Below, piece after piece: positions 4,502 through 28,314 of a DNA stretch of 64,000 bases. The stretch covers positions 1 through 64,000 of the forward strand of contig CAWCTR010000010.1 of the NCBI GenBank assembly GCA_963798485.1, in the 5' to 3' direction. The notes beneath the pieces are model-generated. The model saw only the letters and a program-made list of their open reading frames with translations. It had not been told where the DNA came from and did not search any database. This DNA comes from an uncultured delta proteobacterium (GTDB lineage: Bacteria > Desulfobacterota > Desulfomonilia > UBA1062). The translations under genes and the position numbers were made by a program. How positions within the stretch are numbered: position 1 is the stretch's first letter; every line of letters begins with the position of its first letter.

Positions 4502-4522
4502 AAATGGGGTCAGAGATTATTT
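4502..4522 (+). repeat. Type C repeat (AAATGGGGTCAGAGA...)
   Basis: 16 bp after the PHP-ATPase stop; same core as 21941, 24504, 26785. Confidence 0.7.
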
Positions 4523-4601
4523 TTTGTTGAGATTAAATCGTCTTTGCCTCCAAATACGCCACACAGGGAAGCTATGTTAGGGGATTTTCTAAGGGGATTT
4601 T

Positions 4602-5432
4602 ATGAAAACGTATAATCTTAAGGCATGGGATGAATTTCCAGAATGCTTGCAGAAAATTAATTCAAAGTATGGTGAGTACACCATTAATAGAAAATCTTAC
4701 AAAAATCCAATATTATATCGTGGCCAAGCAGATAGTAAGTGGGCACTTGAAACAACTTTAGAGCGTTTCAGTAAAAGAACTTGGACACTCTATGACTATT
4801 GCCGTGAAATGTTTTTATGTATTCCCCAACTTGAACAACTTACTGGAAAATCGTGGAATCTACCGGAAGAAGAGAGCTTAGAAGCAATTTTACAAAGCAA
4901 TTCTAAGACTGGATTTTATATTCCACCCAAATTCTATGAACTGATGGTCTATTTAAGACATCATAATTTTCCTTCACCATTACTTGATTGGAGTGAATCT
5001 CCATATTTAGCCGCATTCTTTGCCTTCTCAGAAAAAGTAGAAACAAAAAAGGCCGCAGTTTTTGCATATATTAGTACAACAATAGGTATTAAGCGTGGAT
5101 GGGAAGGAGAACCAATGATACGTGTAATGGGTCCTCATACTAGGGGACATGCGCGACATTTTCTCCAACAATCTAGGTATACGATATCAGCAGTCAAAGA
5201 GAAAGATAATAAAAATTATAAGTTTGAATGTCACGAAAAGGTTTTTGAGAAAGGCTTAGATCGCCAAGATATAATTGTTAAGATTACAATTCCTATAAGC
5301 GAGAGGATGAAGGTTCTTACATATCTAGATAGATTTAACATCAATCATTATAGTTTAATGCAATCTGAAGAAGCCCTCATAAGAATGTTAGCTTTCAGGA
5401 ATATCGAGATATTTGAACCATTGGGAAAATGA
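4602..5432 (+). CDS. FRG domain-containing protein
   Basis: YRGQADSKW, RHHNFPSPLLDWSESPYLAAFFA and QQSRYT motifs. Confidence 0.85.
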   Translation: MKTYNLKAWDEFPECLQKINSKYGEYTINRKSYKNPILYRGQADSKWALETTLERFSKRTWTLYDYCREMFLCIPQLEQLTGKSWNLPEEESLEAILQSNSKTGFYIPPKFYELMVYLRHHNFPSPLLDWSESPYLAAFFAFSEKVETKKAAVFAYISTTIGIKRGWEGEPMIRVMGPHTRGHARHFLQQSRYTISAVKEKDNKNYKFECHEKVFEKGLDRQDIIVKITIPISERMKVLTYLDRFNINHYSLMQSEEALIRMLAFRNIEIFEPLGK

Positions 5433-5461
5433 AACTTTAATATTAAAAGGGAGAAAAGGGG

Positions 5462-5503
5462 AGGCGAGAAAAAGGGGACAGATTTATTTTTTGATTATGA
5501 GTA
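5462..5503 (+). repeat. Type A repeat within a 42-bp perfect direct repeat (copy 1)
   Basis: AGGCGAGAAAAAGGGGACAGATTTATTTTTTGATTATGAGTA, identical to 9509-9550. Confidence 0.9.
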
Positions 5504-5853
5504 GGAAAAAATAGGAAGATAAAAGGACAGATATATTTACCGCAAAATTAAAAATAAAACTGTCTTCATTTATCACTATATCTACCCAATTTGCAAAAAA
5601 AAGGCAGGGTCGATGCGCTGTGCTGTTATCGCTTGTTTCCTATCCTGACACCTTCACTATAGCCCCTTTGAAAGACCTGTTTACCCCCCTCTAAAAACTA
5701 ACCCCTAAAAACCTCCGGGTGGTATACACTTTCACTTGCCCATTATTGGTAAGATTTATCATGCCCATGAACAACTCTCCAATACAAGATCAGCCTTCAG
5801 TTTCGAGGTAATAAGGCCTGATGTGGGCAATCGATAATAATATTCTGCTCTTG

Positions 5854-8685
5854 CTATTTTTTCTCAATCGTTAACATGTTTCTGCTATATATTAACCTTT
5901 CTATCTCATTTTTAGAGTTAATTAAATCATTATTCGCTTCTTCATCCTCAGTTTTATAAAGAGCTTCTTCTATATCATCATAAAATGGAGTCATTATATT
6001 ATAGAAAGTTTCTCGACAACGATCGGCTTTCCCAGCACTAGCTTGCTTCATTTCAAATTCATTACAGTACTTATTAACGGTTTGCTTAATCTTACTTGCA
6101 TCAGATTTATTAATAATAGGCTTTTCAAGATTATGATATAATAAAACAAATTCCTGCTGAAACTCCCTTTTTGCATCATAGTAGCCATCAATATTAAAAT
6201 GACCGAAGTCTTGAAAATCACCTTTAGAATATATTGGTCTTGTATCGTAGTTATGTCCTTCTTTTATGACATTTCCTTCCCAAATTAAAAGTGAATTGCC
6301 TATTGATTTGTTATTTACTTGATCTTTAAATAAATTTATCATTATATTTATAATAGAAATCTGATCATTCATTTCATATTTCATTATTTCCTCTAATAGC
6401 TTATCCGTGTAACTTTTAAGGGTGATGAAATTAAAGGCTTCTGTAGCATTTATATATTCTATTTCAAGATTTATTAATTCATCATTGACCTCGGATGATA
6501 AAAATCCTAGCTTACTAAACACGTCCTCATATTTCCTATAAAAATCATGTAAATATTTCAACCTTCCATGTGGAGATATCGCCCCTACAGGTATTACCAA
6601 ATCAACTCTTCCCATTCTTGTTATAGCATCGTCTACACCCTCAATATTATTAGTAGCCATAAGGAGAATGATATTTTCATTATCATGCAATTCCTGGAAT
6701 CTTGGTAGGAGTGAGTTGACAAACAAGCTTCGTCGGTCATAAGGCTGATTCGGGGTTTGGTTTCTATCTTTTACTAAATCGTCTATTTCATCAATGAATA
6801 CTATGGTGTTTTTTAAGTGTAGTAAATGCTCGAATATATCATTTATAGTAACTAATATGGAATCCTCACCTCCAGCAAAAAAATCTCCCGGAGTTAATTC
6901 TAGGTAATCAAGGCCCAGTTTTGTTGCTAAAGCTCTAGCATAGGTTGTTTTACCTGTGCCGGGAGGACCAAATAAAATTGCAGTTCTATATTTACATTCT
7001 TTGACAATATCTCTATCTTCATTAGTAATATCTCTATCTTCATTAGTATGATAGCCTTCTGGGAACATCAATCTGATTTTTGCCTTAACAGTTGTGCTGT
7101 CAAATATATCACTCCACAGAATATTAGGTTTTCTATAGTTGCTGCGAAATCTTTCTTTAGCCCTTCTCGAAAGCTCTAACGATATCAGTTTGCAGAATCT
7201 TTTAATAAAACTTAATGTAAAAGCTGTGGTCCAACTTGTAGGAGTTTTATCACGCTGATGAATTGGATACCAACCAAGAATCTTTCCTTTCTCCAACCTC
7301 TTAGTTCTCGCATAACCATCGTAAATATGTTTCAATTCTTTAACAAAACCAAGCATACATAGATTAAGAGCTTCACAACCAAGTAAGTCACAGACACATT
7401 CATTATCTGTAATTATCATTAATCCATCTTTACTCATAGTTACTTGTTGACCAGTAGCCCAAATGGCATTTTTATCGTTTTTATATTGAGAAAATATAAT
7501 TTCTAAGGCCTTATTTCTAATTAATACATTAGAGAACTTGTTATCTAAGTATACAATAAGAAGTGCATAGATAAGTCTTTTGGGATCATATAATTTAGAA
7601 TCTCCTGATTGTTTTAAAGACATTTGCCTGTATAACTCATACTTAGCAAATAAGTATACTTCATCAAAAATGTAATCAAATAAAAGTTTGTGTATATTTA
7701 TAACTTTACTGATGCCATTAATATCTTTTAACTTATTTATTTCAGTAATATTTTTAACATCTGATATTATTGCTTTAATGTTTATTGCTATATCTTTAAC
7801 CTTATCTGTGTCAGTAGCTCCTATCTTGTTTTTCAAATATATTAATAATTTGTTGTTTATTTCACCAAGTCGATTTTTAAAATTGTTTTCTTCAGTTTTA
7901 TTTGAGAGGTATACATCAAGAATTTTATCAGTCTCCAAAATATTCCATATTTCTTTTCCCCAGTTATCAACAAACTGAAGAAATCTATAAATCTCAAAGG
8001 GATGAATGCTTTCTTTTTTTGTTGAAAACCTATCATAAGATTCTAGTATACAATCCAAACATATTTGATAAAACTTATTTTTAGTTTCTTCATTATAAAT
8101 TTTATCAATAAAATTGTCTTTTATATCCCAGTGCTTCAGATAATTGCTAAATCTAACCAAAGATGTAATTTTTGCTAAAAATCCATATTTAACATCACGA
8201 TCTCCATTAAGTCCGTTAATAATGAATTCAAAATATTTAATTGCTTTTTCATACCCGTACCCTTTACTCATTTGACTTCTTCTGTCGTCTACTTCCCCCC
8301 TACGCTCTGTTGTTGGTAATATTCTATCAATATTTTTAGTTCTTCTATCTTTATTTCCAGTTCTTCTATCATTAGTTTTGTCCCAGACCCAATCTACCCC
8401 TCTTATTTTTTTTCTACACTCAATTACATTTCTTCTATATGCGGCTATAGTCTCGAGACAAACTGCAGTTGAAAATATTCCTATATTATGAATACCTAAA
8501 TCTATTGCTTCACCTTTTTCATTTGGGGATATTGGTAAAAATCTATTATCTTCATCAACGAAATTCCATAATACTTCAAGAGCCTTATCTTCCTTAAAAT
8601 CCTTAATTGATTTTCTTAATCCCTTGTAATCTAATATACTTTCTAATGGCTCATCCCTATACTCTAAGTATTCATGTTTTTTCAT
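5854..8685 (-). CDS. Large AAA+ ATPase with uncharacterised N-terminal region (very AT-rich)
   Basis: Walker A GPPGTGKT, Walker B VFIDEIDD, sensor ATN, Arg finger TRMGR; 943 aa. Confidence 0.8.
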   Translation of the reverse strand: MKKHEYLEYRDEPLESILDYKGLRKSIKDFKEDKALEVLWNFVDEDNRFLPISPNEKGEAIDLGIHNIGIFSTAVCLETIAAYRRNVIECRKKIRGVDWVWDKTNDRRTGNKDRRTKNIDRILPTTERRGEVDDRRSQMSKGYGYEKAIKYFEFIINGLNGDRDVKYGFLAKITSLVRFSNYLKHWDIKDNFIDKIYNEETKNKFYQICLDCILESYDRFSTKKESIHPFEIYRFLQFVDNWGKEIWNILETDKILDVYLSNKTEENNFKNRLGEINNKLLIYLKNKIGATDTDKVKDIAINIKAIISDVKNITEINKLKDINGISKVINIHKLLFDYIFDEVYLFAKYELYRQMSLKQSGDSKLYDPKRLIYALLIVYLDNKFSNVLIRNKALEIIFSQYKNDKNAIWATGQQVTMSKDGLMIITDNECVCDLLGCEALNLCMLGFVKELKHIYDGYARTKRLEKGKILGWYPIHQRDKTPTSWTTAFTLSFIKRFCKLISLELSRRAKERFRSNYRKPNILWSDIFDSTTVKAKIRLMFPEGYHTNEDRDITNEDRDIVKECKYRTAILFGPPGTGKTTYARALATKLGLDYLELTPGDFFAGGEDSILVTINDIFEHLLHLKNTIVFIDEIDDLVKDRNQTPNQPYDRRSLFVNSLLPRFQELHDNENIILLMATNNIEGVDDAITRMGRVDLVIPVGAISPHGRLKYLHDFYRKYEDVFSKLGFLSSEVNDELINLEIEYINATEAFNFITLKSYTDKLLEEIMKYEMNDQISIINIMINLFKDQVNNKSIGNSLLIWEGNVIKEGHNYDTRPIYSKGDFQDFGHFNIDGYYDAKREFQQEFVLLYHNLEKPIINKSDASKIKQTVNKYCNEFEMKQASAGKADRCRETFYNIMTPFYDDIEEALYKTEDEEANNDLINSKNEIERLIYSRNMLTIEKK
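7006..7047. repeat. 21-bp in-frame tandem duplication inside the AAA gene (TNEDRDI x2)
   Basis: AATATCTCTATCTTCATTAGT twice. Confidence 0.9.
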
Positions 8686-8710
8686 AAATCACCTTCTATT
8701 AATCAGAATG

Positions 8711-8766: not shown

Positions 8767-8893
8767 GTTATTATGACTGATCCTTATGTCATCAAAAGTC
8801 TAAGTTCGATTATGAAGCAGTGATGGAAGTCACAGATGAAACACAAGTATACAAAAATTAGTATACATAATCAATTAAAATATTCAGCTTGAG

Positions 8894-8914
8894 AAATCCG
8901 GGGACACCATACTA
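8894..8914 (+). repeat. Type B repeat (AAATCCGGGGACACCATACTA), outer left arm
   Basis: Inverted partner at 10323-10346. Confidence 0.85.
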
Positions 8915-8961
8915 GTTTTATATTGTCAGGTTCCCCTAAACCTGTCCTTAATTCCCCTCAA

Positions 8962-9508
8962 TTATCTGGAAAGAAATCCGTACACTTTTCCCTTGGGCAT
9001 CTCCTTGATTCGCCTGAAGAACTCCGTTTCCGTGATCTGCATGGGCCAGTCGGGGTTGATGGATAGCACAACTCCCTGGTCCTCCGCAGGCCTTATCGCG
9101 TGCACCGCCTCGAGCTCCACCAAGTAGCCGATATCACGGATCAAGGCCTTGCGAGGATTTTTAACCATATATAAGTGCCAAATCTTATCGATAATATCAT
9201 CGAGGGAGATCTCCTCTTCGTACAGCATCAGATTAAGGATCTGCACATGACGCGAGGACATCACCCTCTTGAGCGGTGACTGCAGGTGTCCAAAGAGATC
9301 GTTCATGGTGTCCCGATAGAGCGCCTTGGCGACCTGCTGCCGTATTTCGCCGAACAACCTGCGGCATTGACTCTCTATGCCCTTGAGCGCGAACTTTAGG
9401 AACGATGTCAGATCGTGGTCTTTCTCCCCCGTCTCGTTCAGAGCGTTCAGGTAGGCGGTCTTATTTTCGTAGTAGTAATTGGACATGGCTATGAACAGCG
9501 TATCGAGC
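8962..9508 (-). pseudogene. 5'-truncated Fic-family gene (C-terminal part only)
   Basis: LFIAMSNYYYENKTAYLNAL...DLTSFLKFAL resembles the post-motif Fic region; no HPFxDGNGR motif; the apparent N-terminus is translated repeat DNA (QKINLSPFSR). Confidence 0.65.
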
Positions 9509-9550
9509 AGGCGAGAAAAAGGGGACAGATTTATTTTTTGATTATGAGTA
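9509..9550 (+). repeat. Type A repeat, left inverted repeat of the transposase (42-bp copy 2)
   Basis: 9516-9539 is the reverse complement of 10284-10307 with 1 mismatch. Confidence 0.9.
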
Positions 9551-9596
9551 TTGAGTGAGTTGTACAAATGAGGAGAAGGTAGTAATAATTTGAACT

Positions 9597-10292
9597 ATGC
9601 CGAGGAGAGGACGGGTTGTACTAGCCGGGTATCCTCATCATGTAATACAGAGAGGTCACAACAGGTCAGTCGTGTTCATCAGTGATGAGGACTATCTTTA
9701 TTATCTTGCCAACCTCAAGGAATGGAAAGAGAAGCTTGGCTGCAAGGTCTATGCATACTGCCTGATGGGTAACCATGTTCATTTGGTTATAGATCCGTGC
9801 GCACAGGCCAGCGGCCTATCGTTATTGATGAAGCGCTTGGCCGGCCGGCAGACGCGGTATGTGAATGTTCTTGAGAAGAGGTGTGGGACACTATGGGAGG
9901 GGAGGTATAAGTCAAGCCCCATTGGGGATGAAGATCATCTGCTGGCGTGTTGCCGTTATGTAGAGCTCAATCCGGTGCGGGCAGGGGTCGTAAAGAAGCC
10001 GGAGGACTACCGTTGGTCAAGTTACCGGCATAAGGCTGGATTCGGTGCGGGGAATATAATTGACTTTCATCCTGGATACCTATCGATGGGGGAGAAATCA
10101 CAGGAAAGACAGAAGAGCTATCGGAGATGGATTTGTGAGACGGTTCCTGTCTGGGAATGGAAGTTGATCAGAGAGGCAGTGCAGAGAGGGCAATTGACTG
10201 GTCCGAAAAAATTCGCAGACGAGGTGGAATCCCGTCTGAAGATCAGGGTGGAATTGCGTGGCAGAGGACGACCCAGAAAGGACAAAAAATAA
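9597..10292 (+). mobile_element. REP-associated tyrosine (Y1 HUH) transposase, RAYT/TIR-flanked type
   Basis: HHVIQRGHNR, AYCLMGNHVHL (HUH), LWEGRYKS, YVELNPVRAG (catalytic Tyr), YRWSSY; stop codon lies inside the right inverted repeat. Confidence 0.92.
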
Positions 10293-10346
10293 ATCTGTCT
10301 CCTTTTTCTTAATTAATTTGAAAAATAGGTATGGTGTCCCCAGATT
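10284..10346 (-). repeat. Right arms: type A (10284-10307) then type B (10323-10346), both inverted
   Basis: AAAAAATAAATCTGTCTCCTTTTT and AAATAGGTATGGTGTCCCCAGATT. Confidence 0.88.
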
Positions 10347-10584
10347 GGAAAAGGGGAAAGACATCTTTCTACAGTATGTATGCAGTTTTTCCGATTTATC
10401 AGGTATCATGGGGCGCAGTAATATGACTCGACTCCAGTTCTATGCATTACCTGAAAGCGTCTGCACGCAGTTCGCTTTCAAGTTGACGGTGCTCAACACA
10501 GGCTTGAATCTGGCCATGAATGGCCAGATCGTCTGGAATTATACGTAAATGAAAAAGCTGATGCTTAAAAGAAAGGGGAACCCG

Positions 10585-12188: not shown

Positions 12189-12191
12189 CCT

Positions 12192-12248
12192 AAATCCGGG
12201 GACACCATACTAATTAATTCTGGGAAATAGGTATGGTGTCCCCAGATT
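12192..12248. repeat. Empty type B inverted doublet (REPIN-like)
   Basis: AAATCCGGGGACACCATAC-TAATTAATTCTGGGAAATAG-GTATGGTGTCCCCAGATT, 3 bp after the SH3 stop. Confidence 0.9.
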
Positions 12249-12306
12249 AAGATTATTAAACCTTCAATGCAAAAACTCCGATTTTAAGGAAATACAGCCT
12301 CGAAAT

Positions 12307-13200: not shown

Positions 13201-13216
13201 TGGATAACCCGCATGG

Positions 13217-13349
13217 AAATCTGGGGACACCATACTTAAAAAGGAAAATGGGAATAAAAAAGGGAATAAAAAAGGGGACAGATTTATTTTTTTGGGTCGG
13301 CCCTGGCCTCTGTATTCGAGCTTCTAAATAAATGGCAAGAGACCATTTT
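13217..13349 (+). repeat. Repeat cluster: type B (13217), GGGAATAAAAAA x2 + type A (13274), degenerate type C (13330)
   Basis: Read directly from sequence. Confidence 0.85.
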
Positions 13350-13406
13350 CACAACACTAACAAATCATCTCCGATCCCATTTAATCCTAAGACCTAGGGC
13401 CATGAA

Positions 13407-13592
13407 CTATGTCTTGTCGTCCATTACTGTGTGGATACCCACATAATAGGTGATGGTAGCGCCGATCACGCAGGCATAGAATCCGATCAACTGATCCATG
13501 GTCGGACACTCTCTGTAGACAAACATCAATGTTGAGATGAAAAACGTAGGGACAAGAAATCCTATCAGTGGGACATGATACTTGAGTTTCAT
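13407..13592 (-). CDS. Small two-TM membrane protein (61 aa)
   Basis: MKLKYHVPLIGFLVP...; AAGGGGG RBS; bracketed by type A repeat 13274 and a degenerate inverted copy at 13610-13629. Confidence 0.55.
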   Translation of the reverse strand: MKLKYHVPLIGFLVPTFFISTLMFVYRECPTMDQLIGFYACVIGATITYYVGIHTVMDDKT

Positions 13593-13689
13593 AGATACCC
13601 CCTTCAAATAAATAAATCTATCTCCATTTATTTCTTTTATGATATTCAATTCCCTGAATAATAAAATCAAAAAATGGTGGAGGTTTGTC

Positions 13690-14553
13690 ATGCATGAACG
13701 CAGGCCATTCCGTTCCTTTGTCAGCTATATAGACAAAAGCCGGGAATACTATGCCGCCCAAGGGTATGACCAGCCATATACATGGGCCTACCATAGCAGC
13801 GCCCCCTTCGCATCTCTGAAGAAACCTCTAGCGCAAACCCGAATCGGCTTGATCACAACGGCCTCGTTTATCGATCTCCTCGCGGATGACGAAGCCTTTA
13901 AGAAAGGAAGGGCCCCATATGCTGCACCTTCAGACCCTCCGCCTGAGCGCCTCTACACCGAGCATCTCTTTTGGGACAGGGACGCCACCCATACGGACGA
14001 TGTAGAGAGTTTTTTGCCGCTGAAGCGCCTCGCTGAATTTGCCGGAGAGGGGCGCATCGGTTCAGCTTCGACGCGCTTTTACGGCGTACCCACCGAATAC
14101 AGCCAAGGCCGGACGAGAACCAAGGATGCGCCGCAGGTCTTGGGATGGGTGCAGGAAGACAGTGTGGATGCCGTGCTCCTGTCGGCGCTTTGACCGGTGT
14201 GCCATCAGACCGTGAGTCTGGTTGCCCGTCATCTGGAAGAAAACGGCATACCTACCGTTATCATGGGTTCGGCCCGCGACATCGTTGAGGAATGCGGCGT
14301 GGCCCGTTTTCTGTTTACGGATTTTCCACTGGGAAACCCCTGCGGCAGACCCTGGGATGCCGACATGCAACGCGCGATGGCAGGTGCAGCCCTTGATCTC
14401 CTCGAACATGCCTGGACGCCGCGTACAACGGTCCAGACGCCTTTTCAGTGGCCGGACGAGGAGTGGCGGAGAAAATTCATGCTCGTCGATGAAAGCAACC
14501 GGGAGACCCTAGCCAAAGCGGGTGAGGAGCGGCGTCGCTTTCAAAAGAAATAG
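13690..14553 (+). CDS. GrdB/PrdB-family (glycine/betaine/proline reductase B-like) selenoprotein, Sec at UGA 14191-14193
   Basis: In-frame LLSAL-U-PVCHQTVSLVARHLEENGIPTV (UxxC) joins two ORFs; hairpin ATCAGAC-CGTGA-GTCTGGT at 14204-14222; GGAGG RBS. Confidence 0.88.
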
Positions 14554-14726
14554 GGGACAAAAAACAAATCTGTCCCATTTCCTTTATCCACTCCTTCAGG
14601 ATTTATTGAAGGTTTTTAATCCTTGGAGGGAAAAGGGGACGGTTCTATTTTTTTAAAAATAGACAGTGAGAATCCGGGGACACCATCCTCATTAATTCTG
14701 GGAAATAGGTATGGTGTCCCCAGGTT
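14551..14726. repeat. Repeat cluster: short type A doublet (14553-14580), type D (14631-14651), empty type B doublet (14671-14726)
   Basis: The GrdB-like stop TAG overlaps the GGGG; the B doublet is near-identical to 12192-12248. Confidence 0.85.
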
Positions 14727-14749
14727 ATTAATATTTCTACCTAAAGAGA

Positions 14750-15025
14750 TTACTTTGCCTTTTTCTTTGCAGCCTTTGCCGCTGCGGCCTTCTTCTTTAC
14801 AGCCTTTACCGCCACCTTCGGTTTCGCAGCCTTTGCCGCTGCGGCCTTCGGCTTTGCAGCCTTTGCCACCGCCTTAGGTTTCGTAGCCTTTGCTGCTGCT
14901 GCCTTTGGCTTTGCAGCCTTTACCGCCGCCTTAGGTTTCGCAGCTTTTGCTGCTGCTACCTTCGGCTTTGCAGCCTTTGGGGGTTTCTTTTTTACTTCCT
15001 TCTTAGCAACTGCCGTTTTTGCCAT
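14750..15025 (-). CDS. Histone H1-like Lys/Ala-rich protein
   Basis: (A)AKAAKPK repeats; AGGAG RBS. Confidence 0.75.
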   Translation of the reverse strand: MAKTAVAKKEVKKKPPKAAKPKVAAAKAAKPKAAVKAAKPKAAAAKATKPKAVAKAAKPKAAAAKAAKPKVAVKAVKKKAAAAKAAKKKAK

Positions 15026-15043: not shown

Positions 15044-16102
15044 TTACTCTTTATCCTCTGCGTCTTCATTCTCTTCCAGAACAATGTCATCCACATCTAA
15101 AACAAATTCAGCATCAAGTTCATCGACAACCTCGTGCAGGTCTTCATTCTCACCCGGGGCAATATTGAGTGGTTCTGTTTTTGCCACGTAAGCTGAACGT
15201 TGTTTCCCCCTGCGCTTGCGAGCCGCTTTGATCACTCCATCAAGCTGATTAGCTCCACATGACGGGCAAAGAGGTTGCGGTTTACCTAAATCATAAAATT
15301 TGATGCTACAGTTATAGCACTTGTACCGTTTCCCAAGGTCTACAGAAGGAACCATAACCTTCTGAGTTTGAATCTTTTCAGTCACAATGACATCTTTTTT
15401 TTCAGACAGCTGACCCATCTCAGAAGAAATTACCTTTGTCTCGAATGTCTTCTCTTTCGCTGCCGGAGCAGCTTTTTTCTCGCCATGCTTTTCTGCTTTT
15501 CCGGCCGGCTTACTCTTGACGGGTTGTTTCTTCACAACAGCAGGGGGCACTGGGCCCTTGGACGGCTTAGCTTTGACTACCGGGGCTTCTTTTTTCTTGC
15601 TCAGCTGCACTGCTTTCCCTGCCGGCTTGCCCTTGGCAGGTTGTTTCTTCACTGCAGCAGGAAGCACAGGGCCCTTGGACGGCTTAGCTTTGACTACCGG
15701 GGCTTCTTTTTTCTTGCTCAGCTGCACTGCTTTTCCGGCCGGCTTGCCCTTAACGGGTTGTTTCTTCACTGCAGCAGGAAGCACAGGACCCTTGGACGGC
15801 TTCGCTTTGACTTTCGGGGCTTCTTTTTTCTTGCTCAGCTGCGCTGCTTTTCCGGCCGGCTTACCCTTGACGGGTTGTTTCTTCACTGCAGCAGTATGCA
15901 CAGGGTTCTTGGATGGCTTCCCTTTGATTATCGGAGCTTCTTTTTTCTTGTGCTGCAGTTCTGCTTTTCCAAAAACCTTTTTATTTTTAGGTTTCTTCTT
16001 CTCGGCTAATGAAACACCGCTTTTATGAGATTCCTTCTTAACTGCCGGCCCAGTCTTCTTTTTCTCAGGACGATTTTTATTGAGTTTGTTTAGTGATCGC
16101 AT
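15044..16102 (-). CDS. Lys-rich repeat protein with C-terminal FYDLN-type zinc ribbon and acidic tail
   Basis: 117-bp (39-aa) repeats at 15601/15718/15835; LGKRYKCYNCSIKFYDLGKPQPLCPSCG. Confidence 0.75.
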   Translation of the reverse strand: MRSLNKLNKNRPEKKKTGPAVKKESHKSGVSLAEKKKPKNKKVFGKAELQHKKKEAPIIKGKPSKNPVHTAAVKKQPVKGKPAGKAAQLSKKKEAPKVKAKPSKGPVLPAAVKKQPVKGKPAGKAVQLSKKKEAPVVKAKPSKGPVLPAAVKKQPAKGKPAGKAVQLSKKKEAPVVKAKPSKGPVPPAVVKKQPVKSKPAGKAEKHGEKKAAPAAKEKTFETKVISSEMGQLSEKKDVIVTEKIQTQKVMVPSVDLGKRYKCYNCSIKFYDLGKPQPLCPSCGANQLDGVIKAARKRRGKQRSAYVAKTEPLNIAPGENEDLHEVVDELDAEFVLDVDDIVLEENEDAEDKE

Positions 16103-16190: not shown

Positions 16191-16406
16191 CAAGGGAAAG
16201 GGAAGAAGGGGACAGATTTTTTTGGAGGAAAATCCGCAGTAAATCTGTATATCTGGGACCACCTTACTAATTTTGCTTTTTCGGTCTCCCTGCTTTATTG
16301 GGAGACAGTTTTCTTACGAAATCATTTTCCGGACCGACAACAGAAAAAGGGGGCAGTTCTATTTTTTAGGTTTAAAACCATGAAAAACAGGGTCAGAGAC
16401 CGTTTA
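16191..16406 (+). repeat. Cluster of partly degenerate type A (16208), B (16251), D (16344) and C (16385) repeats
   Basis: GGGGACAGATTTT; ATCTGGGACCACCTTACTAA; AAAAAGGGGGCAGTTCTATTT; AGGGTCAGAGACCGTTT. Confidence 0.7.
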
Positions 16407-16512
16407 TTCCAAAATCCATGATCTTGGCATATAATCATCAGATACTATTGTCATACAAAAATTATCTGTATATACCTAACGTAAACATCATTGCATCAGG
16501 AAGGGGTTAATC

Positions 16513-18777: not shown

Positions 18778-18909
18778 GATCTCGTCCTTTTAAATGCAGT
18801 GCGGCGAGCAGGCTTGGTAAGGTGAAGCCCCAGCCGTTTCAACCAGTTCATACGGTGAAATAGTACCTCTCCTTGTCTTTGGAGTCAGGGTCAGCGGCCA
18901 TTTTATTAC

Positions 18910-18930
18910 AAATAGAACCGTCCCCTTTTT
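18910..18930 (-). repeat. Type D repeat, inverted (AAATAGAACCGTCCCCTTTTT)
   Basis: Reverse complement of 14631 and 24552. Confidence 0.85.
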
Positions 18931-20169: not shown

Positions 20170-20262
20170 AGAAACCTCCGCAGCAAGAAAATGCTATTCG
20201 AACCTTGATGCCTAGGCATTACACCATATTTTTGAGAATTTTTATACCCAAAGATGATCATG

Positions 20263-20287
20263 AATCCGGGGACACCATACTAGTTTT
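20263..20287 (+). repeat. Type B repeat
   Basis: AATCCGGGGACACCATACTAGTTTT, same extended flank as 8895. Confidence 0.85.
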
Positions 20288-20706: not shown

Positions 20707-20775
20707 GGACAAAAAGGGACAAAAAGGGGACAAAAAGGGGACAGATTTATTTTTTAAGGCCGCCCCTGGCCTCTG
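20707..20775 (+). repeat. Type A repeat preceded by a triple GGACAAAAAG stutter
   Basis: 3' flank CCCTGGCCTCTG is shared with the 13274 copy. Confidence 0.85.
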
Positions 20776-20858: not shown

Positions 20859-20865
20859 TCGTAGT

Positions 20866-21355: not shown

Positions 21356-21928
21356 ATGAAAGTGGTGGGATTTGTGGGAAGTCCGAGGAAATCGGGGAAT
21401 ACTGCTGCAGTGGTGGAGGAGGTCCTTCGGGGCGCACAGGAAGCGGGTGCAGAAACGAGCGTATATAATCTTAACCAGCTCAATATAAGGGGATGCCAGT
21501 CATGCTACAAATGCCAGACACCGGATGGAAAATGCATACAGAAAGACGACATGGGAAAGCTGCTTGACGAGATCTACAGCGCCGATGCCATTGTGATCGG
21601 CACGCCTCTCTACATGATGCAGGTGACCGGCCAAACCAAGGTATTCCTGGACAGGTTCTTTTCCTTCCTCTATCCGGTGGATGCCACTTCGGGCAATTTC
21701 AGGAACAAGTTGGGCGGAAAAAAGGCAGTGACGGTGTACACGCAGGGCCAGCCTGATACCAATCTATTCTCGTCTTATCTCAACCAGATGGACGGCACCC
21801 TGAGCTTCATCGGCTTCAATGTACAGGGCCGGGTCGTGGCAGGCGGCAACAGAAACATGGATGATGCAAAAAAGGACAGTGCAGTTATGGAAAAGGCATA
21901 CGCCGCGGGGACAGCCCTTGTTTGTTAA
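21356..21928 (+). CDS. Iron-sulfur flavoprotein / flavodoxin family protein
   Basis: GSPRKSGNT, CQSCYKC..C, GTPLY; AGGAGG RBS. Confidence 0.88.
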   Translation: MKVVGFVGSPRKSGNTAAVVEEVLRGAQEAGAETSVYNLNQLNIRGCQSCYKCQTPDGKCIQKDDMGKLLDEIYSADAIVIGTPLYMMQVTGQTKVFLDRFFSFLYPVDATSGNFRNKLGGKKAVTVYTQGQPDTNLFSSYLNQMDGTLSFIGFNVQGRVVAGGNRNMDDAKKDSAVMEKAYAAGTALVC

Positions 21929-21962
21929 ATAGGGTCTGTTAAATAGGGTCAGAGACCATTTT
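21923..21962 (+). repeat. Type C repeat with a 14-bp tandem duplication TGTTAAATAGGGTC x2 overlapping the stop codon
   Basis: 21923-21936 is identical to 21937-21950. Confidence 0.85.
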
Positions 21963-22046
21963 CTATTAAATTAATTTCATAAGAAGCACCAGGTATTACT
22001 GGAGTGCCGGGGCTTCTATTGACTCATCTGAAAATTATATGTGTGC

Positions 22047-22775: not shown

Positions 22776-22791
22776 CAATTCACAGGTCAAT

Positions 22792-23202
22792 CTACTTCCT
22801 AAGAATCATCAGGAATTCCTGCGGAGATATGATTCTTACCGATTTATATTTCTTCAGATCAAGCAAGTCCTTGTCGCCGGTGACAATGTGGGATGCCTTT
22901 GCATTAAACGCAACTGAGATGAACATTTCATCGTCGGGATCACGGCAGACGCCATGTATCTCTTCCTCGATATCGACCACTTCAAAGAATGGAAGTATTT
23001 CCTTTTCAATGATGCTTTTCATCTCCTCATCTTTCAGGCCGAATTTCGGGTAGCTGAGCACTTTTCTGAACTCGGAAAAGGTTTCCTTCGAGATGGCAGG
23101 TGAAATGGCGCCTTTCTTCCAGAGATCAACGAACTCTGCAAGGTACCCCTTGAGAAGGATTGCAGAAACCAGGACGTTGGTGTCCAGGACGACCCGTTTC
23201 AT
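22792..23202 (-). CDS. PIN-domain toxin (VapC-like)
   Basis: VVLDTNVLVSA...CRDPDDE...IVTGDKDLL. Confidence 0.9.
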   Translation of the reverse strand: MKRVVLDTNVLVSAILLKGYLAEFVDLWKKGAISPAISKETFSEFRKVLSYPKFGLKDEEMKSIIEKEILPFFEVVDIEEEIHGVCRDPDDEMFISVAFNAKASHIVTGDKDLLDLKKYKSVRIISPQEFLMILRK

Positions 23203-23441
23203 CACTTCTTCTTTTTCCTTACCCAACTGACTGCATCGCTTACGTCTTCCCCTGTAATACCAAGTTTCTCCATCTTGTCCCGGATGCTTTCCAGGGAAGA
23301 GGTGATGGGGGTTATCCTGACAGGCATCAGTACAATCTGATTATCCTTCACCTTGGCGTCGAACAAGTCAACACCCGGGAACTTATCGGCAATTTCTTTG
23401 GGGAGAGTCAGCTGGTTTTTTGAGGTTTTCTTGGCAAGCAT
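23202..23441 (-). CDS. AbrB/MazE-like antitoxin
   Basis: KTSKNQLTLPKEI; TGATG coupling to the PIN gene. Confidence 0.85.
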   Translation of the reverse strand: MLAKKTSKNQLTLPKEIADKFPGVDLFDAKVKDNQIVLMPVRITPITSSLESIRDKMEKLGITGEDVSDAVSWVRKKKK

Positions 23442-23553
23442 ACTATCTTACCTCCTTACAGTAAGGATACCTTAATTTCCATTTGGCTGCAAGTCGAATA
23501 TCGCCGGAACTTATCGGGGCGGATTTCTTCATGACGCCCCTTCTCAGATGCTA

Positions 23554-23889
23554 TCAGGTGAAGATCTGGTGTAACACGAAGCTTACTACTGAAAAGACAA
23601 TACTGAAAAGGATCGCCCACCAGATATTCATGACGGAAAACCCGGTCACGATGGCGCTTGTCAGGAGCACGAGTAGTCCGTTCAGGACAAGGATGAAGAG
23701 CCCCAGGGTGAGGATGGTGAAAGGAAAGGTCAGTACAATCAATATGGGCCGCAGCACGGCATTGATGAGCCCGAGCACCAGGGCCGTCATCAGTGCTGTC
23801 CCAAAGCTCTGGACCGAAACCCCGGGCAGCAGATAGGCAGTGATCATGATCGACACCGTCATCAGAAGCCACTTGATAAATATTTTCAT
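23554..23889 (-). CDS. YvlD / 4-TM phage holin family membrane protein
   Basis: ALVLGLINAVLRPIL..LTFP..ILTLGLF...N. Confidence 0.85.
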   Translation of the reverse strand: MKIFIKWLLMTVSIMITAYLLPGVSVQSFGTALMTALVLGLINAVLRPILIVLTFPFTILTLGLFILVLNGLLVLLTSAIVTGFSVMNIWWAILFSIVFSVVSFVLHQIFT

Positions 23890-24002
23890 GGAAACCTCCA
23901 TACCCATGCTAACCTATTACCCACCACGGCAGCATTATTCTCACTCTGCCGATCACTGTACCGGCAGTCTGAACGAATGCCGCAAACGATCCCAAACAGG
24001 CG

Positions 24003-24290: not shown

Positions 24291-24501
24291 TTTCGTTCTC
24301 CTTTCAGGCTGATGGGGCCGCCTCCTATGACCCAACAGAAAGCATGGGGACATGCTTGTGAAATATGATGGCTCCAAGAATGCCCGCTACCCCATTCATC
24401 CCGGCGTCTGATGCTTTCCGTTTCATCAATCACTCCTTTGCTTTTGATAACTATATAGGAATCCCTTCGGGCGAAGGCAACACCCGGAAGAAATCCATCG
24501 G

Positions 24502-24590
24502 AAAAATGGGGTCAGAGACCATTTATCAAAGGAAAAGGGAAGAAAAAGAAGAAAAAGGGGACGGTTCTATTTTTCTGCGAGTCCCCATTT
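24502..24590. repeat. Repeat cluster: type C (24504), GAAGAAAAA x2 + type D (24552), inverted GTCCCCATTT (24581)
   Basis: Read directly; abuts the ORF6N stop. Confidence 0.85.
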
Positions 24591-25081
24591 TATTGTTCCT
24601 CATCCGTCTTTGAGAGAAACCCTATCTGCCTCTTCTTCTGCGCTGGCGGGGTCATAAGCTGCCGTATTGCATGGATCAGCATTGAAAGATCCTTGTCGTG
24701 AGACATAACCTTGTTCTCAAGTTCGTCAAGCTTGGCTGCAAGCCGTCTATGAGTCGAAAGAAGTTCCCTCAATTGCACAAACGCACGTACAACAAACACG
24801 CTCATCTCTATGGCCCGTGGTGTGTTCAGGATGGTTGCTGCCATGATCGCACCGTGTTCAGTGAATGCATACGGAAGATAACGGCGGCCTCCACGGCCTG
24901 CCTTTGAGGTCGCATTTTGCGACCTCAAAGATTCAAATTCCTCTGATGTGAGCTGGAATAGAAAGTCTTCAGGGAACCTTGAGATATTCCGTTTGACCTG
25001 CTCATTAAAACGTTTGGTTGGCACATCAAAGAGTTCCTCTTTCTTTGTGATAAGCTGGTTGGGTATGATGGTAGTGGGCAT
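24590..25081 (-). pseudogene. ORF6N-domain DNA-binding protein, apparently 5'-truncated
   Basis: ELFDVPTKRFNEQVKRNISRFPEDFLFQL...YAFTEHGAIMAA..KRQIGF; the usual IRGQKVMLD N-terminus is absent. Confidence 0.7.
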
Positions 25082-25186
25082 TGATGTCGGCGGGGAACGG
25101 AAAGGTTTCCATGCAGTCGCTCTGGGGACGGTCTCTTCATTGCAACGCAGAAGTCAACCGATCCATCTACTGTTGTGGACTGGTGT
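25065..25186 (+). pseudogene. Frameshifted N-terminal fragment of a DUF429-like (RNase H fold) gene
   Basis: MMVVGIDVGGERKGFHAVAL, then in another frame DGLFIATQKSTDPSTVVDWC. Confidence 0.45.
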
Positions 25187-25281
25187 CATCTCCAACCTCT
25201 CTTTTCTCATAAATCTTTCGTGAGATTTCAGGGAAAATGTGCCATGAAGAGAAAGAGGATTAACCACAGGGACAGGTTGCA

Positions 25282-26745
25282 ATGACAATGACCGCTGCTC
25301 ATCTGGTGCACGATGTCTGGCATATCGCTGCTATCGGACTTGGGTTGCTTCTTTCTGTATGTGCGACCGGACACGTAGTTCTCTACAAACGCGATTCGCG
25401 CTCCGCCATCGCGTGGGTGGGTTTCGTTTGGCTCGTGCCCCTCATCGGGGCTGTCATGTACTTCTTTTTCGGAGTGAATCGCATTCGCCGTAAGGCCTTT
25501 CTGCTGAGAAGAGACCTGGAGCGGTACCGGGCAGAAGCCACTCAACTGGAATGTATGCCGGAAGAGTTGCAGCGACATCTGCCGGATCACGGAGGATATC
25601 TCGAGATGCTGGCCCGGGTCGTTGGAGGTGTGGTGGAGCGGCCCTTATTGCCGGGGAACCGGATCGATCCGTTGGTGAACGGAGATGAAGCCTATCCGGC
25701 CATGCTTGAGGCGATCCAAAACGCGAGGCAGACAGTATCTTTTGTGACCTATATCTTTGATCGGGACGAAGTCGGGATGGCCTTTGCGCATGCGTTCGGC
25801 GAGGCTGTGCGCCGGGGCGTGGCAGTGAGGGTGCTGATTGACGCAACGGGGACTCATTATTCCTGGCCCTCCATTCTCCACACGCTGCAGCGGGAGGGGG
25901 TGAAGCATGCACGGTTTCTCCCGCCTTTTGCTTTGTTGCATCCGATGTCGGTCAACATGCGCACACACAGGAAGATCCTGGTGGCGGATGGGCGCGTGGG
26001 ATTTACCGGCGGCATGAATATTCGAGTGGGGAACTGCCTTCAAGCCCGACCGAAAAACCCGGTGCAGGACATCCATTTCCGCGTGAAGGGCCCTGTGGTG
26101 ACCCAGCTCCAGGAAGTATTCATTGATGATTGGCTTTTCACGACCGGTGAATCTTTGCGCGGTGAAAAATGGTTTCCACAAACCGAAAGCGCGGGGCAGG
26201 TGTTGGCGCGGGGCGTTACCGACGGTCCGGATGAGAATTTCGAGAAACTTCGTTGGACGCTGTTGGGAGCATTGTCGATTGCCCGCCGTTCTGTTCGTAT
26301 CATGACTCCCTATTTTCTGCCCGACCCTGCAGTGGTTTCCGCTCTGAATCTGGCAGCAATGCGGGGTGTTCAGGTCGATATCATTTTGCCTGCACAGATC
26401 AACCTGCCCTTCGTCCTGTGGGCCTCACGGGCGATGTGGTGGCAAGTGCTCCAGCATGGATGCCGGATATGGCTGACCCCGCCTCCATTCGATCACTCCA
26501 AACTCATGCTGGTGGATGGCTGTTGGGTTCTGTTGGGCTCGGCCAACTGGGATGCCCGGAGCCTGCGCCTCAACTTCGAGTTCAACGTGGAATGTTACGA
26601 CGTCAAGCTTGCCACGTGGCTTGATCAGTGGGTTGAGACGAAACGGAAGAGCGCCCGTCCCGTGACGTTAGAGGAGGTCGATGGCCGCTCACTGCCCGCC
26701 CGCCTGCGCGACGGTATCGCGCGATTGCTCACGCCGTACTTATAG
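25282..26745 (+). CDS. cls: Cardiolipin synthase (PLD family)
   Basis: N-terminal PLDc_N TMs; two HKD motifs HRKILVADG and HSKLMLVDG. Confidence 0.9.
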   Translation: MTMTAAHLVHDVWHIAAIGLGLLLSVCATGHVVLYKRDSRSAIAWVGFVWLVPLIGAVMYFFFGVNRIRRKAFLLRRDLERYRAEATQLECMPEELQRHLPDHGGYLEMLARVVGGVVERPLLPGNRIDPLVNGDEAYPAMLEAIQNARQTVSFVTYIFDRDEVGMAFAHAFGEAVRRGVAVRVLIDATGTHYSWPSILHTLQREGVKHARFLPPFALLHPMSVNMRTHRKILVADGRVGFTGGMNIRVGNCLQARPKNPVQDIHFRVKGPVVTQLQEVFIDDWLFTTGESLRGEKWFPQTESAGQVLARGVTDGPDENFEKLRWTLLGALSIARRSVRIMTPYFLPDPAVVSALNLAAMRGVQVDIILPAQINLPFVLWASRAMWWQVLQHGCRIWLTPPPFDHSKLMLVDGCWVLLGSANWDARSLRLNFEFNVECYDVKLATWLDQWVETKRKSARPVTLEEVDGRSLPARLRDGIARLLTPYL

Positions 26746-26784
26746 TCCGGAACTTATGTGTGGCGCGGGCATATCCATCTGAAT

Positions 26785-26980
26785 AAATGGGGTCAGGCAA
26801 GAAAGGCAAGAAAAGGGGCAAGAAAAGGGGACAGATTTATTTTCCGGTCTATTCTCCCGGGTTTAATTTTTGTGGAGTGCCGGAACCCTTGAGGAGATAC
26901 AGTATTTATCGGGTCAGAGACCATTTACGCCATTTACAGAAATAGGAGTCAGAGGCCATTTATGCACTGACCCCTATTTC
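26785..26980. repeat. Repeat cluster: C (26785), GGCAAGAAA stutter x3 + A (26827), C (26911), C doublet (26940-26979)
   Basis: Read directly from sequence. Confidence 0.85.
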
Positions 26981-27017
26981 CATTATCACCCCTTCTTTTC
27001 CTTACGCGGTCCTTCCT

Positions 27018-27467
27018 TTAGTGTCTATCGCGTCCCTGTTGTCCATGTCCCTGGAAGTGACGGCTGGGGATGCGTTGGTAGTTCCATGAGCGGCCGTGCC
27101 AGCTATGGGCTCTGTAATAGCCTCTCCAGCCTGGGTCCACATGATTGTAGAACCTTGGGACTCTGTTGTAATAGGCCCAGCCCCGATCGTAATAATGGGA
27201 GCGATACCAGCGACCTTCATAGGGACGCCACCACCAGCCGTTCCAGAAAAACAGCTCGACGTTGACATCAGGGGCCACGTAAACTCGGTCTGTATCCGGT
27301 ATATCCACCAGATCCGGAGGTCCCGGAGGTCCCGGAGGTCCTCCTCCGACTCCGATTACTATAGGAGGCAGACCGATGTTTATACCCACCCTTACCCCTG
27401 CCATTGCAGGGATAGGGGTGATAATCACTAATGCCAGCAATATTGTTAACAGATATAGTTTTTTCAT
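27018..27467 (-). CDS. Secreted Pro/Trp-rich protein (YXWGXW-like)
   Basis: Signal peptide, VGINIGLPP, FFWNGWWWR; GGAGGAG RBS; bracketed by type A arms at 26827 and 27572. Confidence 0.7.
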   Translation of the reverse strand: MKKLYLLTILLALVIITPIPAMAGVRVGINIGLPPIVIGVGGGPPGPPGPPDLVDIPDTDRVYVAPDVNVELFFWNGWWWRPYEGRWYRSHYYDRGWAYYNRVPRFYNHVDPGWRGYYRAHSWHGRSWNYQRIPSRHFQGHGQQGRDRH

Positions 27468-27569
27468 GTGTTTCTCCTCCGTGTAATTTTCGATTGTTTT
27501 ATAATTTAGATGACGAGTGAAGCACCTTTGTTGTCTACATTGGTAATAATGGTGTAAGAGGCCATTTTG

Positions 27570-27586
27570 ATCTGTCCCCATTTTTT
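27570..27586 (-). repeat. Type A repeat, inverted (ATCTGTCCCCATTTTT)
   Basis: Reverse complement of the GGGGACAGAT core. Confidence 0.75.
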
Positions 27587-27649
27587 GTGATAGGTTGGTA
27601 TGACTGGCGGGGAAATGGGGTCCATTTATAATGCAGGAGAATTGAGTCT

Positions 27650-28141
27650 ATGGTCACAACAGAAGAGCGCACCGAGCTTTTGGAAATGGTGAGGGAGCTT
27701 GCAAACAGCTCTCCTTACTATCGTCATGTACAGATGCAGGTAGTAGGGTTCACTCAGCAGGGATGTATCATGAACATGATCGTAGAGCACCAGCATACAA
27801 ACCTCTATGGCAACACTCATGGTGGGGCTGTTGCATCGCTGGCAGACTCCACCTGTGGAATATCGCTTGCAGTGGCACTCGAACGTAATGAATATGCCAT
27901 GACCCAGCACCTTGATGTAAGTTATCTTAAGCCCTCTACCAAAGGCATATTGCGTGCTGAAGGGAGATTGCTCTCGCGCGGCAGGAATTCAGCAGTACTT
28001 GAGGCGGATATCTTCAATGAATCAGGTGAAAAGGTTGCACACGCACATACTGTCCACAGTATTCGCAAGAGGCCGGGCGGGTATATTCCAGAGGACTCTA
28101 AAGATATTAATGATAGTAAAGACAAGGGAGAAAATGCCTAA
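27650..28141 (+). CDS. PaaI family thioesterase
   Basis: NLYGNTHGGAVASLAD; stop TAA overlaps a type B repeat. Confidence 0.9.
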   Translation: MVTTEERTELLEMVRELANSSPYYRHVQMQVVGFTQQGCIMNMIVEHQHTNLYGNTHGGAVASLADSTCGISLAVALERNEYAMTQHLDVSYLKPSTKGILRAEGRLLSRGRNSAVLEADIFNESGEKVAHAHTVHSIRKRPGGYIPEDSKDINDSKDKGENA

Positions 28142-28314
28142 ATCCGGGGACACCATACTGGGTTTATATTGTCGAGTTCACCAAAACCGTTCCCGATTCC
28201 CTCTTAATCAACGTGAAAGAAATCCGTACACCTTCCCCTTGGGCATTTCCTTGATCCGCCTGAAGAACTCCGTCTCCGTGATCTGCATGGGCCAGTCGTG
28301 GTTGGTGGAGAGCA
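28140..28314. repeat. Type B repeat plus Fic 3' remnant (28208-28314, minus strand); diverged copy of 8894-9068
   Basis: Encodes LSTNHDWPMQITETEFFRRIKEMPKGKVYGFLSR* versus LSINPDWPMQ...FLSR*. Confidence 0.9.

Follow-up and report, generated by a model that had tools for sequence, protein, structure and literature searches.

The systems closest to the locus described here are the TIRtrons, in which a gene of RAYT type (REP-associated tyrosine transposase, REP being the repetitive extragenic palindrome) lies between terminal inverted repeats (TIRs), the gene then being called a TIRYT (Di Nocera et al. 2013, PMC3733652). In the portions of that paper available to us, many TIRs share the motif GGGGWSAS, and TIR copies occur singly, as dimers or in groups; most TIRYTs fall in subclass 2.1 of Quentin et al. 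2018 (PMC6006769, likewise available in part). An initial annotation of the DNA analyzed here had pointed to such a RAYT subgroup, and the portions cited bear this out. Our subject is a window of 64,000 nucleotides from an uncultured delta proteobacterium (genome G000, contig C10:1-64000; assembly of 4.30 Mb in 32 contigs), in which a 24-kb stretch, 4502-28314, is punctuated by copies of four short repeat subtypes, A to D, around one intact gene of this kind. Is this stretch an integron-like gene-cassette platform run by an HUH transposase, as the annotation had inferred? We consider it rather probable that it is instead one TIRtron plus about thirty non-autonomous TIR copies of four lineages, situated in an exchange hotspot whose turnover proceeds mostly via imported DNA. 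Genomes compared are numbered G000 to G057, and the family set comprises 52 genomes.

The A-type TIRtron occupies positions 9509-10310 on the + strand, with its left TIR at 9514-9540, the gene at 9597-10292 and the right TIR at 10283-10309. The two 27-nt arms are 96% complementary; the right one overlaps the stop codon of the gene, and both carry GGGGACAG, of the GGGGWSAS type, which in the left one lies at 9521-9528. Because inverted A repeats of 27 nt with this motif flank the gene, the element is classed as a TIRYT within a TIRtron. A single A arm does not fold (-0.5 kcal/mol, z -0.67). The open reading frame (ORF) of 231 amino acids matches Pfam Y1_Tnp (E 8e-13), and H60 and H62 (NHVHL), Y121 (RYVELNPVRA) and the NPVRA motif are invariant in all nine aligned TIRYTs, the query and eight relatives. 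An AlphaFold2 model (pLDDT 77) finds its best PDB match by Foldseek in 4er8_A, the E. coli TnpA-REP bound to a REP hairpin (E 4e-7); the transposases of IS608, IS200 and ISDra2 rank behind it, with IS608/IS200 TnpA at about 1e-4. A sequence search of the PDB returns a single match, the IS200 transposase 2f4f (E 0.0034), so that 4er8 is reached by fold search. The NCBIfam RAYT model NF047646 (REP_Tyr_transpos) scores 73.9 bits, under its cut-off of 80. Taken together, the Y1_Tnp match, the HUH/Tyr residues and the fold match to 4er8_A uphold the RAYT assignment made at the outset, in the form of a RAYT-like Y1 HUH protein. ORF 9597-10292 is an intact enzyme of this type, the TIRYT of a TIRtron, and its type probably belongs to subclass 2.1 of Quentin et al.

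In the model, the C-terminal part (residues 124-231) is helical, an extension of about 100 residues. At E<=10, Pfam detects no helix-turn-helix in this piece, only a sub-threshold AT-hook at 98-107 (E 0.35). A GRPRK-type end (GRP[R/K]K) is kept in eight of the nine aligned TIRYTs, and the ninth is truncated. The AT-hook-like tail RGRGRPRK (10257-10289) might serve to bind the A/T runs on either side of the GGGG(A/T)C core. No second ORF and no tnpB lie within the element, and G000 has one A-type gene; orthologues of 67-69% identity in G018, G040 and G055 are flanked by the same TIR. The protein family is large, with at least 7398 of 8000 scored candidates reaching E<=1e-20.

How does this element compare with its better known relatives? 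With IS200/IS605 elements (IS608, ISDra2) it shares the HUH/Tyr chemistry and the fold, but it lacks both subterminal hairpins and tnpB, has inverted repeats as its ends, and encodes an enzyme with the helical extension ending in the conserved GRPRK motif. To the REP/REPIN-RAYT systems (E. coli TnpA-REP, Pseudomonas REPINs) it is linked by the 4er8_A match, by hairpin-forming inverted dimers (B+/B- here, A dimers in G055) and by a single-copy transposase between its own repeats. It differs from them in lacking a GTAG-tagged palindrome, in the absence of stable hairpins from single A, C and D units, in a protein score under the RAYT cut-off, and in copy number: tens of copies (61 profile matches genome-wide, 28 of them in one 25-kb stretch) rather than hundreds dispersed through the core. 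With published TIRtrons the locus shares a RAYT-like Y1 HUH gene with terminal inverted repeats instead of REP hairpins and, by the available text of the 2013 paper, the GGGGWSAS-bearing TIR, one gene per TIR type, and single, dimeric and grouped copies.

The four subtypes are confirmed. A copy is present at every position listed initially, from 4502 through 28140, and a repeat search of the window recovers the inverted pairs at their annotated places together with three consensus sequences: AAAAAGGGGAC[A/G]G..TATTTT for the A/D family, AATCYGGGGACACCATACT for B and AAATGGGGTCAGAGACCATTT for C. The motif GGGGWCRS matches 35 times in the 64-kb window, as against 15.7 +/- 4.0 in shuffled sequence, where none of 100 shuffles reaches 35; 27 of the 35 lie within 4.5-28.3 kb. 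A count of more than 30 repeats holds once degenerate copies are admitted (32 in the first 38 kb by fuzzy matching at <=3 mismatches) but not at the profile level, where nhmmer at E<=1 gives 28 matches in 4.5-28.2 kb. The annotation had found none of the intergenic repeats after about 36 kb; profile matches are absent from 28.2 to 64 kb, and along the contig they resume at C10:80670. Genome-wide, at <=1 mismatch, the share falling within C10:4-29 kb is 7/9 for A, 8/12 for B, 4/7 for C and 3/11 for D. In the nhmmer genome scan (E<=1, overlapping matches merged), 28 of 61 matches fall in this interval, which makes up 0.58% of the genome and would be expected to hold 0.35; these counts are biased towards array copies, on which the A-D profiles were trained. 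Copies are thus concentrated in C10:4-29 kb, and an even spread through the genome is ruled out by this proportion. A second, smaller cluster lies at C4:140-152 kb, in DNA of G000 that is absent from the five relatives searched.

The copies are not randomly oriented. Once four inverted pairs are removed, 18 solo units lie on the + strand and two on the - strand (binomial p 4e-4, the copies not being independent), and the bias persists in relatives after their regions are oriented alike. Such a bias is expected of elements that act on the lagging-strand template. GC skew on the + strand is weakly positive in eight of ten full-size bins of the contig, too weak to set the direction of replication. 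Four A/D cores are preceded by tandem iterations, 9-12 nt long, of their own 5' part. Several repeats were described as overlapping or abutting stop codons; those at 10292 (within the right TIR), 12188, 14553 and 28141 do so, and those at 21928 and 24590 stand 12-13 nt off.

Where do four subtypes come from? Besides the A-type TIRs of the three orthologues, a D' variant flanks a second TIRYT of G000 (C10:80803-81471), about 52 kb beyond the array, and D-like ends flank the TIRYT genes of G007 and G057. A B' variant flanks the TIRYT at G002 C5:220304, and a C-like end flanks that of G047. Each subtype is thus the TIR of a different TIRYT lineage. Since A to D match the ends of four such lineages, the repeats are best described as TIR-derived and MITE- or REPIN-like (a MITE being a miniature transposable element with inverted repeats). 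Of TIRYT genes, G000 itself has that of A type, that of D' type together with a truncated duplicate, and on C7 a degenerate fragment; none of B or C type was found in the genome. Elsewhere, TIR copies are numerous in genomes with a cognate gene. G055, of another genus and with a cognate A-type gene, holds 41 A copies, 40 of them exact and most in close inverted dimers; 28 are on the contig of the TIRYT and 12 within about 15 kb of the gene. G010 holds 44 copies of its own TIR variant, which also flanks its TIRYT, scattered between genes that are syntenic with repeat-free regions of G000. Both patterns are REPIN-like behavior without a link to gene cassettes.

Two further transposase loci of G000 are recorded here. 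The second TIRtron (C10:80670-81960) has D' ends AAGGGGACGTTTCTATTT and an intact TIRYT of 229 amino acids, followed by a truncated duplicate of its own 3' half with an additional right end; upstream of its left end runs a long purine-rich (AAAGG)n-like iteration, in the same place as the iterations before A/D cores. On the - strand at C21:255565-255912 lies another Y1_Tnp gene (220-aa frame) with GTTGGGTT...AACCCAAC palindrome copies on both sides. This arrangement looks like a classic REP/RAYT or IS200-type one, unlike the TIRYTs.

The surroundings of the array are conserved and its content is not. On one side lies an rRNA operon, in G000 at C9:2008-7220 (16S, two tRNAs, 23S, 5S). Immediately before the TPR gene, G008 and G009 have the 5S gene with its terminator; for G000 we infer the join of 5S to array from synteny, because the contig breaks before that point. 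On the other side, conserved genes begin at about 35.7 kb. Between them a backbone of TPR-SH3, PAS, FYDLN, thiolase, unk138, 4HBT and EF-hand genes keeps its order, collinear in G007/G008 and in G009/G012 apart from indels, and the slots between these genes differ. At <=3 mismatches the corresponding regions carry 32 repeats in G000, 19 in G002, 9 each in G007 and G008, one in G009 and none in G012; repeat-poor regions are compact, and repeat-rich ones have extra genes. Between SH3 and PAS, G012 has an empty slot of 8 nt; elsewhere this slot is occupied by a B dimer (G000), by C+/C- (both G007 and G008) or by a B-like dimer that is degenerate (G009). Between FYDLN and thiolase there are one repeat in G008, two in G007 and four in G000, with no gene gained.

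Whole blocks also come and go. In G009 and G012, the B repeat after PAS is joined directly to the region upstream of thiolase, a B-to-C join where G000 has 3.2 kb. Homology of the FYDLN block with G006, G007 and G008 sets in at 14663-14671, where a B+ copy has its outer edge, and in G006 the block lies with a B+/B- dimer on the opposite side of thiolase. The PIN-AbrB block is found in G002 between thiolase and NMO, with C+ on both sides; in G000 its edges are free of repeats, and one metagenome contig (X5) joins 22777 to 23554 (side 49) and thus lacks the block there. In G002 and G003 the PLD block is found at a different locus, and in G013 its context is a third one; a C- copy stands at its 5' edge in both G003 and G013, and in G000 the copy there is degenerate. 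Comparison with relatives, proposed as a check at the outset, accordingly reveals a region in which blocks have been inserted, deleted and relocated between congeners, with several breakpoints exactly on repeats. Sequence identity tells the same story. Blocks of the region shared by G000 and G002 are 95.4, 95.6, 95.0, 91.6, 91.4 and 89.5% identical, while the flanking genes reach 68-85%, which indicates horizontal exchange; the PIN block and the second unk187 copy are lower (83.5 and 82.3%). The trend is the same, though weaker, for G000-G008 and G000-G009, and G007 is uniform at about 87-92%. The 24-kb stretch is a horizontal-exchange hotspot.

Public sequencing runs and metagenome contigs add little to these comparisons. 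The highest share of sampled words in any run was 0.26, and most contig joints are uninformative, their sides of 21-25 nt lying inside repeats. Loose contig ends at 9515, 12192, 13268, 14631 and 24527 show only that the repeats occur in other contexts as well.

Do the repeats, then, act as the boundaries of cassettes? According to the platform model of the initial annotation, TIRYTs cut and rejoin single-stranded DNA at A-D copies, and blocks are excised, captured and reinserted by an integron analogue common to several species. Much of the above agrees with it: the extreme degree to which all four TIR types cluster in a single variable region, the exchange of blocks between species, homology that ends exactly at repeats (the B-to-C join, the FYDLN block at its B+ edge), the C copies around PIN-AbrB in G002 and at the 5' edge of the PLD block in G003 and G013, the 18 of 20 solo repeats on one strand, and the iterations 5' of A/D cores, as if left by repeated nick-and-rejoin events. 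One cargo-like case is a unit on the + strand at 13262-14580, bounded by inverted A repeats (22 nt, 91%) with an extra degenerate A- copy at 13605-13629. It carries a PrdB/GrdB-like gene (13639-14553, +) in which two adjacent ORFs are joined by an in-frame TGA (U185, context SALUPVCH). None of the other 51 genomes in the family set yielded this gene at E<=1e-40. The genome-contig scan found no relative of the unit; the metagenome scan found two loci, and one of them, L038, holds the unit at 96% identity in the same slot, also bounded by A+ and A- and with different neighbors downstream. No second context emerged from either scan.

Other results speak against such a platform. A tblastn search for TIRYTs in the fetched stretches of the homologous regions of G002, G006, G007, G008, G009, G011 and G012 gave no hits, and G002 bears A and C repeats although its only TIRYT match at E<=1e-10 is of B' type. 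Slots hold one to four stacked repeats, repeats pile up without cargo, and in G010 they are dispersed between genes in synteny with those of G000. A fixed pairing of one gene with one site cannot be recognized; both strands are used, and the offset of breakpoints is variable. PIN-AbrB has repeat-free edges in G000, and the metagenome contig lacks the block there. Of 32 breakpoint clusters, 15 lie within 30 nt of a repeat. The share within that distance is 9% for positions at large and 38% for intergenic ones, and among gene ends it is 9 of 42; the breakpoint set includes some contig ends and fading alignments, and degenerate repeats were left uncounted. Given the 38% expected of intergenic DNA, being at a repeat is inseparable from being intergenic, and the models are not discriminated by this count. 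Of the cassette-boundary idea there remains that repeats concentrate in a plastic region and that some breakpoints fall on them; a cassette grammar does not, since stacks occur without cargo and breakpoints are no closer than intergenic positions. We therefore regard the platform as unlikely.

The comparison with integrons and CALINs (attC clusters without integrase) leads to a similar point. Likenesses are the punctuation of unrelated genes by a recurring family of sites, with content that varies between relatives, and possibly the handling of the site as single-stranded DNA; unlike in integrons, there are several sites per slot, some slots are free of cargo, and genes lie on both strands. 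No integrase domain was detected in the 30 Pfam-scanned ORFs of 1165-36459, a set that includes smaller ORFs only in part. Membership among integrons was rejected on four counts: no integrase in the 30 scanned ORFs, no attC-like fold, cassettes that are not co-oriented, and one to four units per slot. An integron-like reading is hence only partly supported, and the defining features of integrons are lacking.

A further reading takes the ends of TIRYTs as sites of single-strand recombination that are portable. Whether in cis or in trans, and possibly across TIR types by way of the GGGG(A/T)C core common to them, a TIRYT would nick the lagging-strand template at same-strand solo copies and join distant repeats, thereby deleting, circularizing and reinserting the genes between them. 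If this were so, the region next to the rRNA operon would be a multi-slot gene-capture array spread horizontally across species and the first integron-like system run by an HUH enzyme, and a family whose orphan members number in the thousands would gain a function. We hold this to be quite unlikely.

Could the repeats serve the host instead? REPs in enterobacteria act as terminators, stabilizers or topology-type sites. By analogy, the copies here could be domesticated terminators, mRNA-stabilizing hairpins or topology sites beside a highly transcribed rRNA operon, with a merely historical link to the transposase. Many copies indeed lie 0-15 nt from stop codons, T runs end the A and D units, and in relatives the array starts directly after the 5S terminator. 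The B+/B- dimer folds strongly (-15.8 kcal/mol, z -5.4), and these dimers are the only units to form a hairpin; the GTAG tag is absent from all units. Against shuffled sequence, by contrast, single-stranded A folds no better (z -0.7), and C and D are weak (z -2.2 and -1.3). The type of copy differs between species in one and the same slot, which may even be empty, and G009 and G012, with one repeat and none, retain the backbone genes. Rfam at gathering thresholds finds no family in 1-46000 of the window. The perfect 42-nt copy of the TIRtron end at 5462-5503 and the 40 exact copies in G055 point to recent mobility, not conservation, and so count against domestication as well. A role of this kind seems highly improbable to us.

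We return to the explanation that we favor, a TIRtron with scattered ends in an exchange hotspot. Non-autonomous TIRYT ends are present as solo units and inverted dimers around the intact TIRtron. By analogy with TnpA-REP and IS608 TnpA, the enzyme would recognize the GGGG(A/T)C-containing end on single-stranded DNA, and Tyr121 would nick and rejoin it. TIR units may then be copied or moved, preferentially nearby and adjoining existing copies, and such a local preference would fill intergenic slots with stacked repeats. The turnover of gene blocks would mostly reflect recombination of imported DNA. The repeats would be markers, possibly also short portable homologies or nicking sites, rather than the sites of a dedicated integron-like machine; they may both mark a plastic region and help its turnover. 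Chromosomal hotspots of horizontal gene transfer, like the minimal mobile elements of Neisseria, lie between conserved genes and often beside short repeats. The conserved backbone, the variable slots and exchange by recombination of imported DNA are common ground; here, ends of Y1 transposases stand at the slot borders, and the region itself contains one intact transposase.

Several results weigh against this explanation. All four TIR types are concentrated here although G000 has no B- or C-type TIRYT; with only the A gene resident and D' about 52 kb off, local hopping cannot account for the copies of B, C and D type. The strand bias of the solo units, 18 to 2, is not predicted by passive accumulation, which also leaves unexplained the perfect 42-nt TIRtron end and the 9-12 nt iterations before cores. 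Repeat number tracks accessory content across genomes (32, 19, 9, 9, 1, 0), and one foreign gene, the PrdB-like one, sits between inverted A repeats in the manner of cargo. Co-localization, strand bias, tracking of accessory content and the enclosed gene would all fit an active part for the repeats in gene capture. In addition, the TIRYT literature, as far as available in part, yielded no biochemical data, activity or role for any TIRYT.

What sets this locus apart from published TIRtrons is that TIRs of four lineages, two of them without a cognate gene in the genome, share one 24-kb variable region, that solo units are strand-biased, and that the repeats coincide with turnover of gene blocks between species. 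The co-location of four TIR types, the hotspot location and the strand-biased solos are new relative to the published descriptions in the available text, though figures or supplements of PMC3733652 may list related TIR families. Searches by title or abstract found no paper in which repeats of TIRYT or RAYT type are described as bordering cassettes. For Pseudomonas, REPs are reported as a mark of the stable core, with "REP deserts" where the DNA is mobile or strain-specific (PMC3390384, available in part); here the pattern is the opposite, with repeats concentrated in exchanged, strain-specific DNA. The locus is a compact natural test bed: one enzyme is intact and accompanied by its own ends, by a solo end that is perfect over 42 nt and by the ends of three other lineages, and several sister genomes have slots that are empty, filled or differently filled. 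If TIRYT ends guide block exchange, genes would be captured by a new route that relies on single-stranded DNA. Even otherwise, the concentration of TIRYT repeats in exchanged DNA, opposite to that of Pseudomonas REPs, matters for their use as genome-age markers.

The individual copies are distributed as follows. A C-type repeat (4502-4528, +) separates the Ppl-like ATPase gene from the FRG gene. The solo TIRtron left end (5462-5503, +), between low-GC defense-type genes, is 100% identical over 42 nt to 9509-9550; the identity extends past the TIR into the interior of the element and so points to recent duplication or mobilization. A B-type repeat (8893-8919, +) at the 3' end of a C-terminal Fic fragment pairs in inverted orientation with 10322-10346 (25 nt, 84% complementary) and thereby encloses the fragment and the TIRtron. 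The latter copy belongs to a B- repeat followed by a degenerate A-like one (10322-10368, -) upstream of the TPR gene, and the A-like relic is common to G007 and G012. The SH3/PAS slot holds the REPIN-like B+/B- inverted dimer at 12190-12251. After the PAS gene come B+ and A+ (13215-13303, +), with a 12-nt tandem iteration 5' of the A core. Downstream of the unk91 and FYDLN genes lie D+ and a B+/B- dimer (14628-14735), and the FYDLN/thiolase slot contains a stack of A+, degenerate B+, D+ and C+ (16202-16407, +).

Further along, C+ and D- (18883-18930) stand between the NMO and OYE genes, where homology with G002 stops at 18878, and B+ (20261-20287, +) lies upstream of OYE, whose block, common with G010, stops at 20240. 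The A+ copy at 20707-20766 (+) is preceded by 3.5 tandem iterations of 11 nt (GGACAAAAAGG). A C+ copy (21941-21963, +) follows the FMN reductase gene, and C+ and D+ (24504-24577, +) lie downstream of the ORF6N gene, G002 homology stopping at 24497. After the PLD gene, a group at 26781-26974 comprises a C-like copy, A+, two C+ and a reverse partial C; homology of the PLD block with G003 and G002 stops at 26781. Beside the start of unk187 are a degenerate C+ and a reverse GGGGACAG core (27552-27579). The last copy, a B+ that overlaps the 4HBT stop codon, forms part of a segment at 28138-28314 (+) with a 175-nt duplicate (85%) of 8894-9068.

The genes between the repeats are as unrelated as first described. 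Profile scans, with Pfam covering 30 ORFs in 1165-36459 (smaller ORFs only partly), return defense-like ATPases, an FRG protein, a PIN/AbrB pair, a thiolase, flavoenzymes and PLD. Genes lie on both strands throughout 4.6-28.1 kb, and the GC content at third codon positions (GC3) of adjacent genes spans 0.23-0.76. The claim of selenoproteins is supported by two in-frame TGA readings, U185 of the PrdB-like gene and U96 in the motif LYCAU of a rhodanese-related ORF (28376-28789, +). The latter scores 80.9 bits against the NCBIfam "rhodanese-related (seleno)protein" model, under the cut-off of 115, and by its sequence is likely a selenoprotein. That several genes are fragments holds for one clear case, 8962-9567, which matches only the C-terminal part of a Fic-type profile (SoFic positions 216-340 of 361); further clear fragments were not seen.

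Some smaller observations concern these genes and their neighbors. Three defense-type genes within 1165-8685, separated by TIR repeats, are very unlike in composition: GC3 is 0.46 in the Ppl/AbiEii-like ATPase, 0.27 in the FRG protein (which matches PADLOC PDC-S15) and 0.23 in the IetA/TRIP13-like AAA+ protein. The B+ repeat and the 3' end of the Fic-type gene (8894-9068) recur together at 28140-28314 with 85% identity. On C4 of G002 the segment occurs twice, once in a Fic-type ORF of full length and once as a shorter second copy, both times beside an unk187 homologue, as if the Fic-type segment and unk187 moved as a pair. In G008, the SH3/PAS slot on C13 (locus L018) contains long poly-C runs and an N run that look like an assembly artefact. 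Contig C9 of G000 starts with a partial copy of the 23S end and 5S start (C9:1-348), ahead of the full operon at C9:2008-7220, and the contig breaks at C9:1 and at window position 1 are probably due to collapsed rRNA copies. Finally, two adjacent genes on the - strand contain coding tandem repeats, 57 nt x 3.7 in unk91 (14757-14979) and 117 nt x 3.9 in FYDLN_acid (15493-15950), whose copy numbers appear to vary in relatives because multiple offset BLAST hits are seen.

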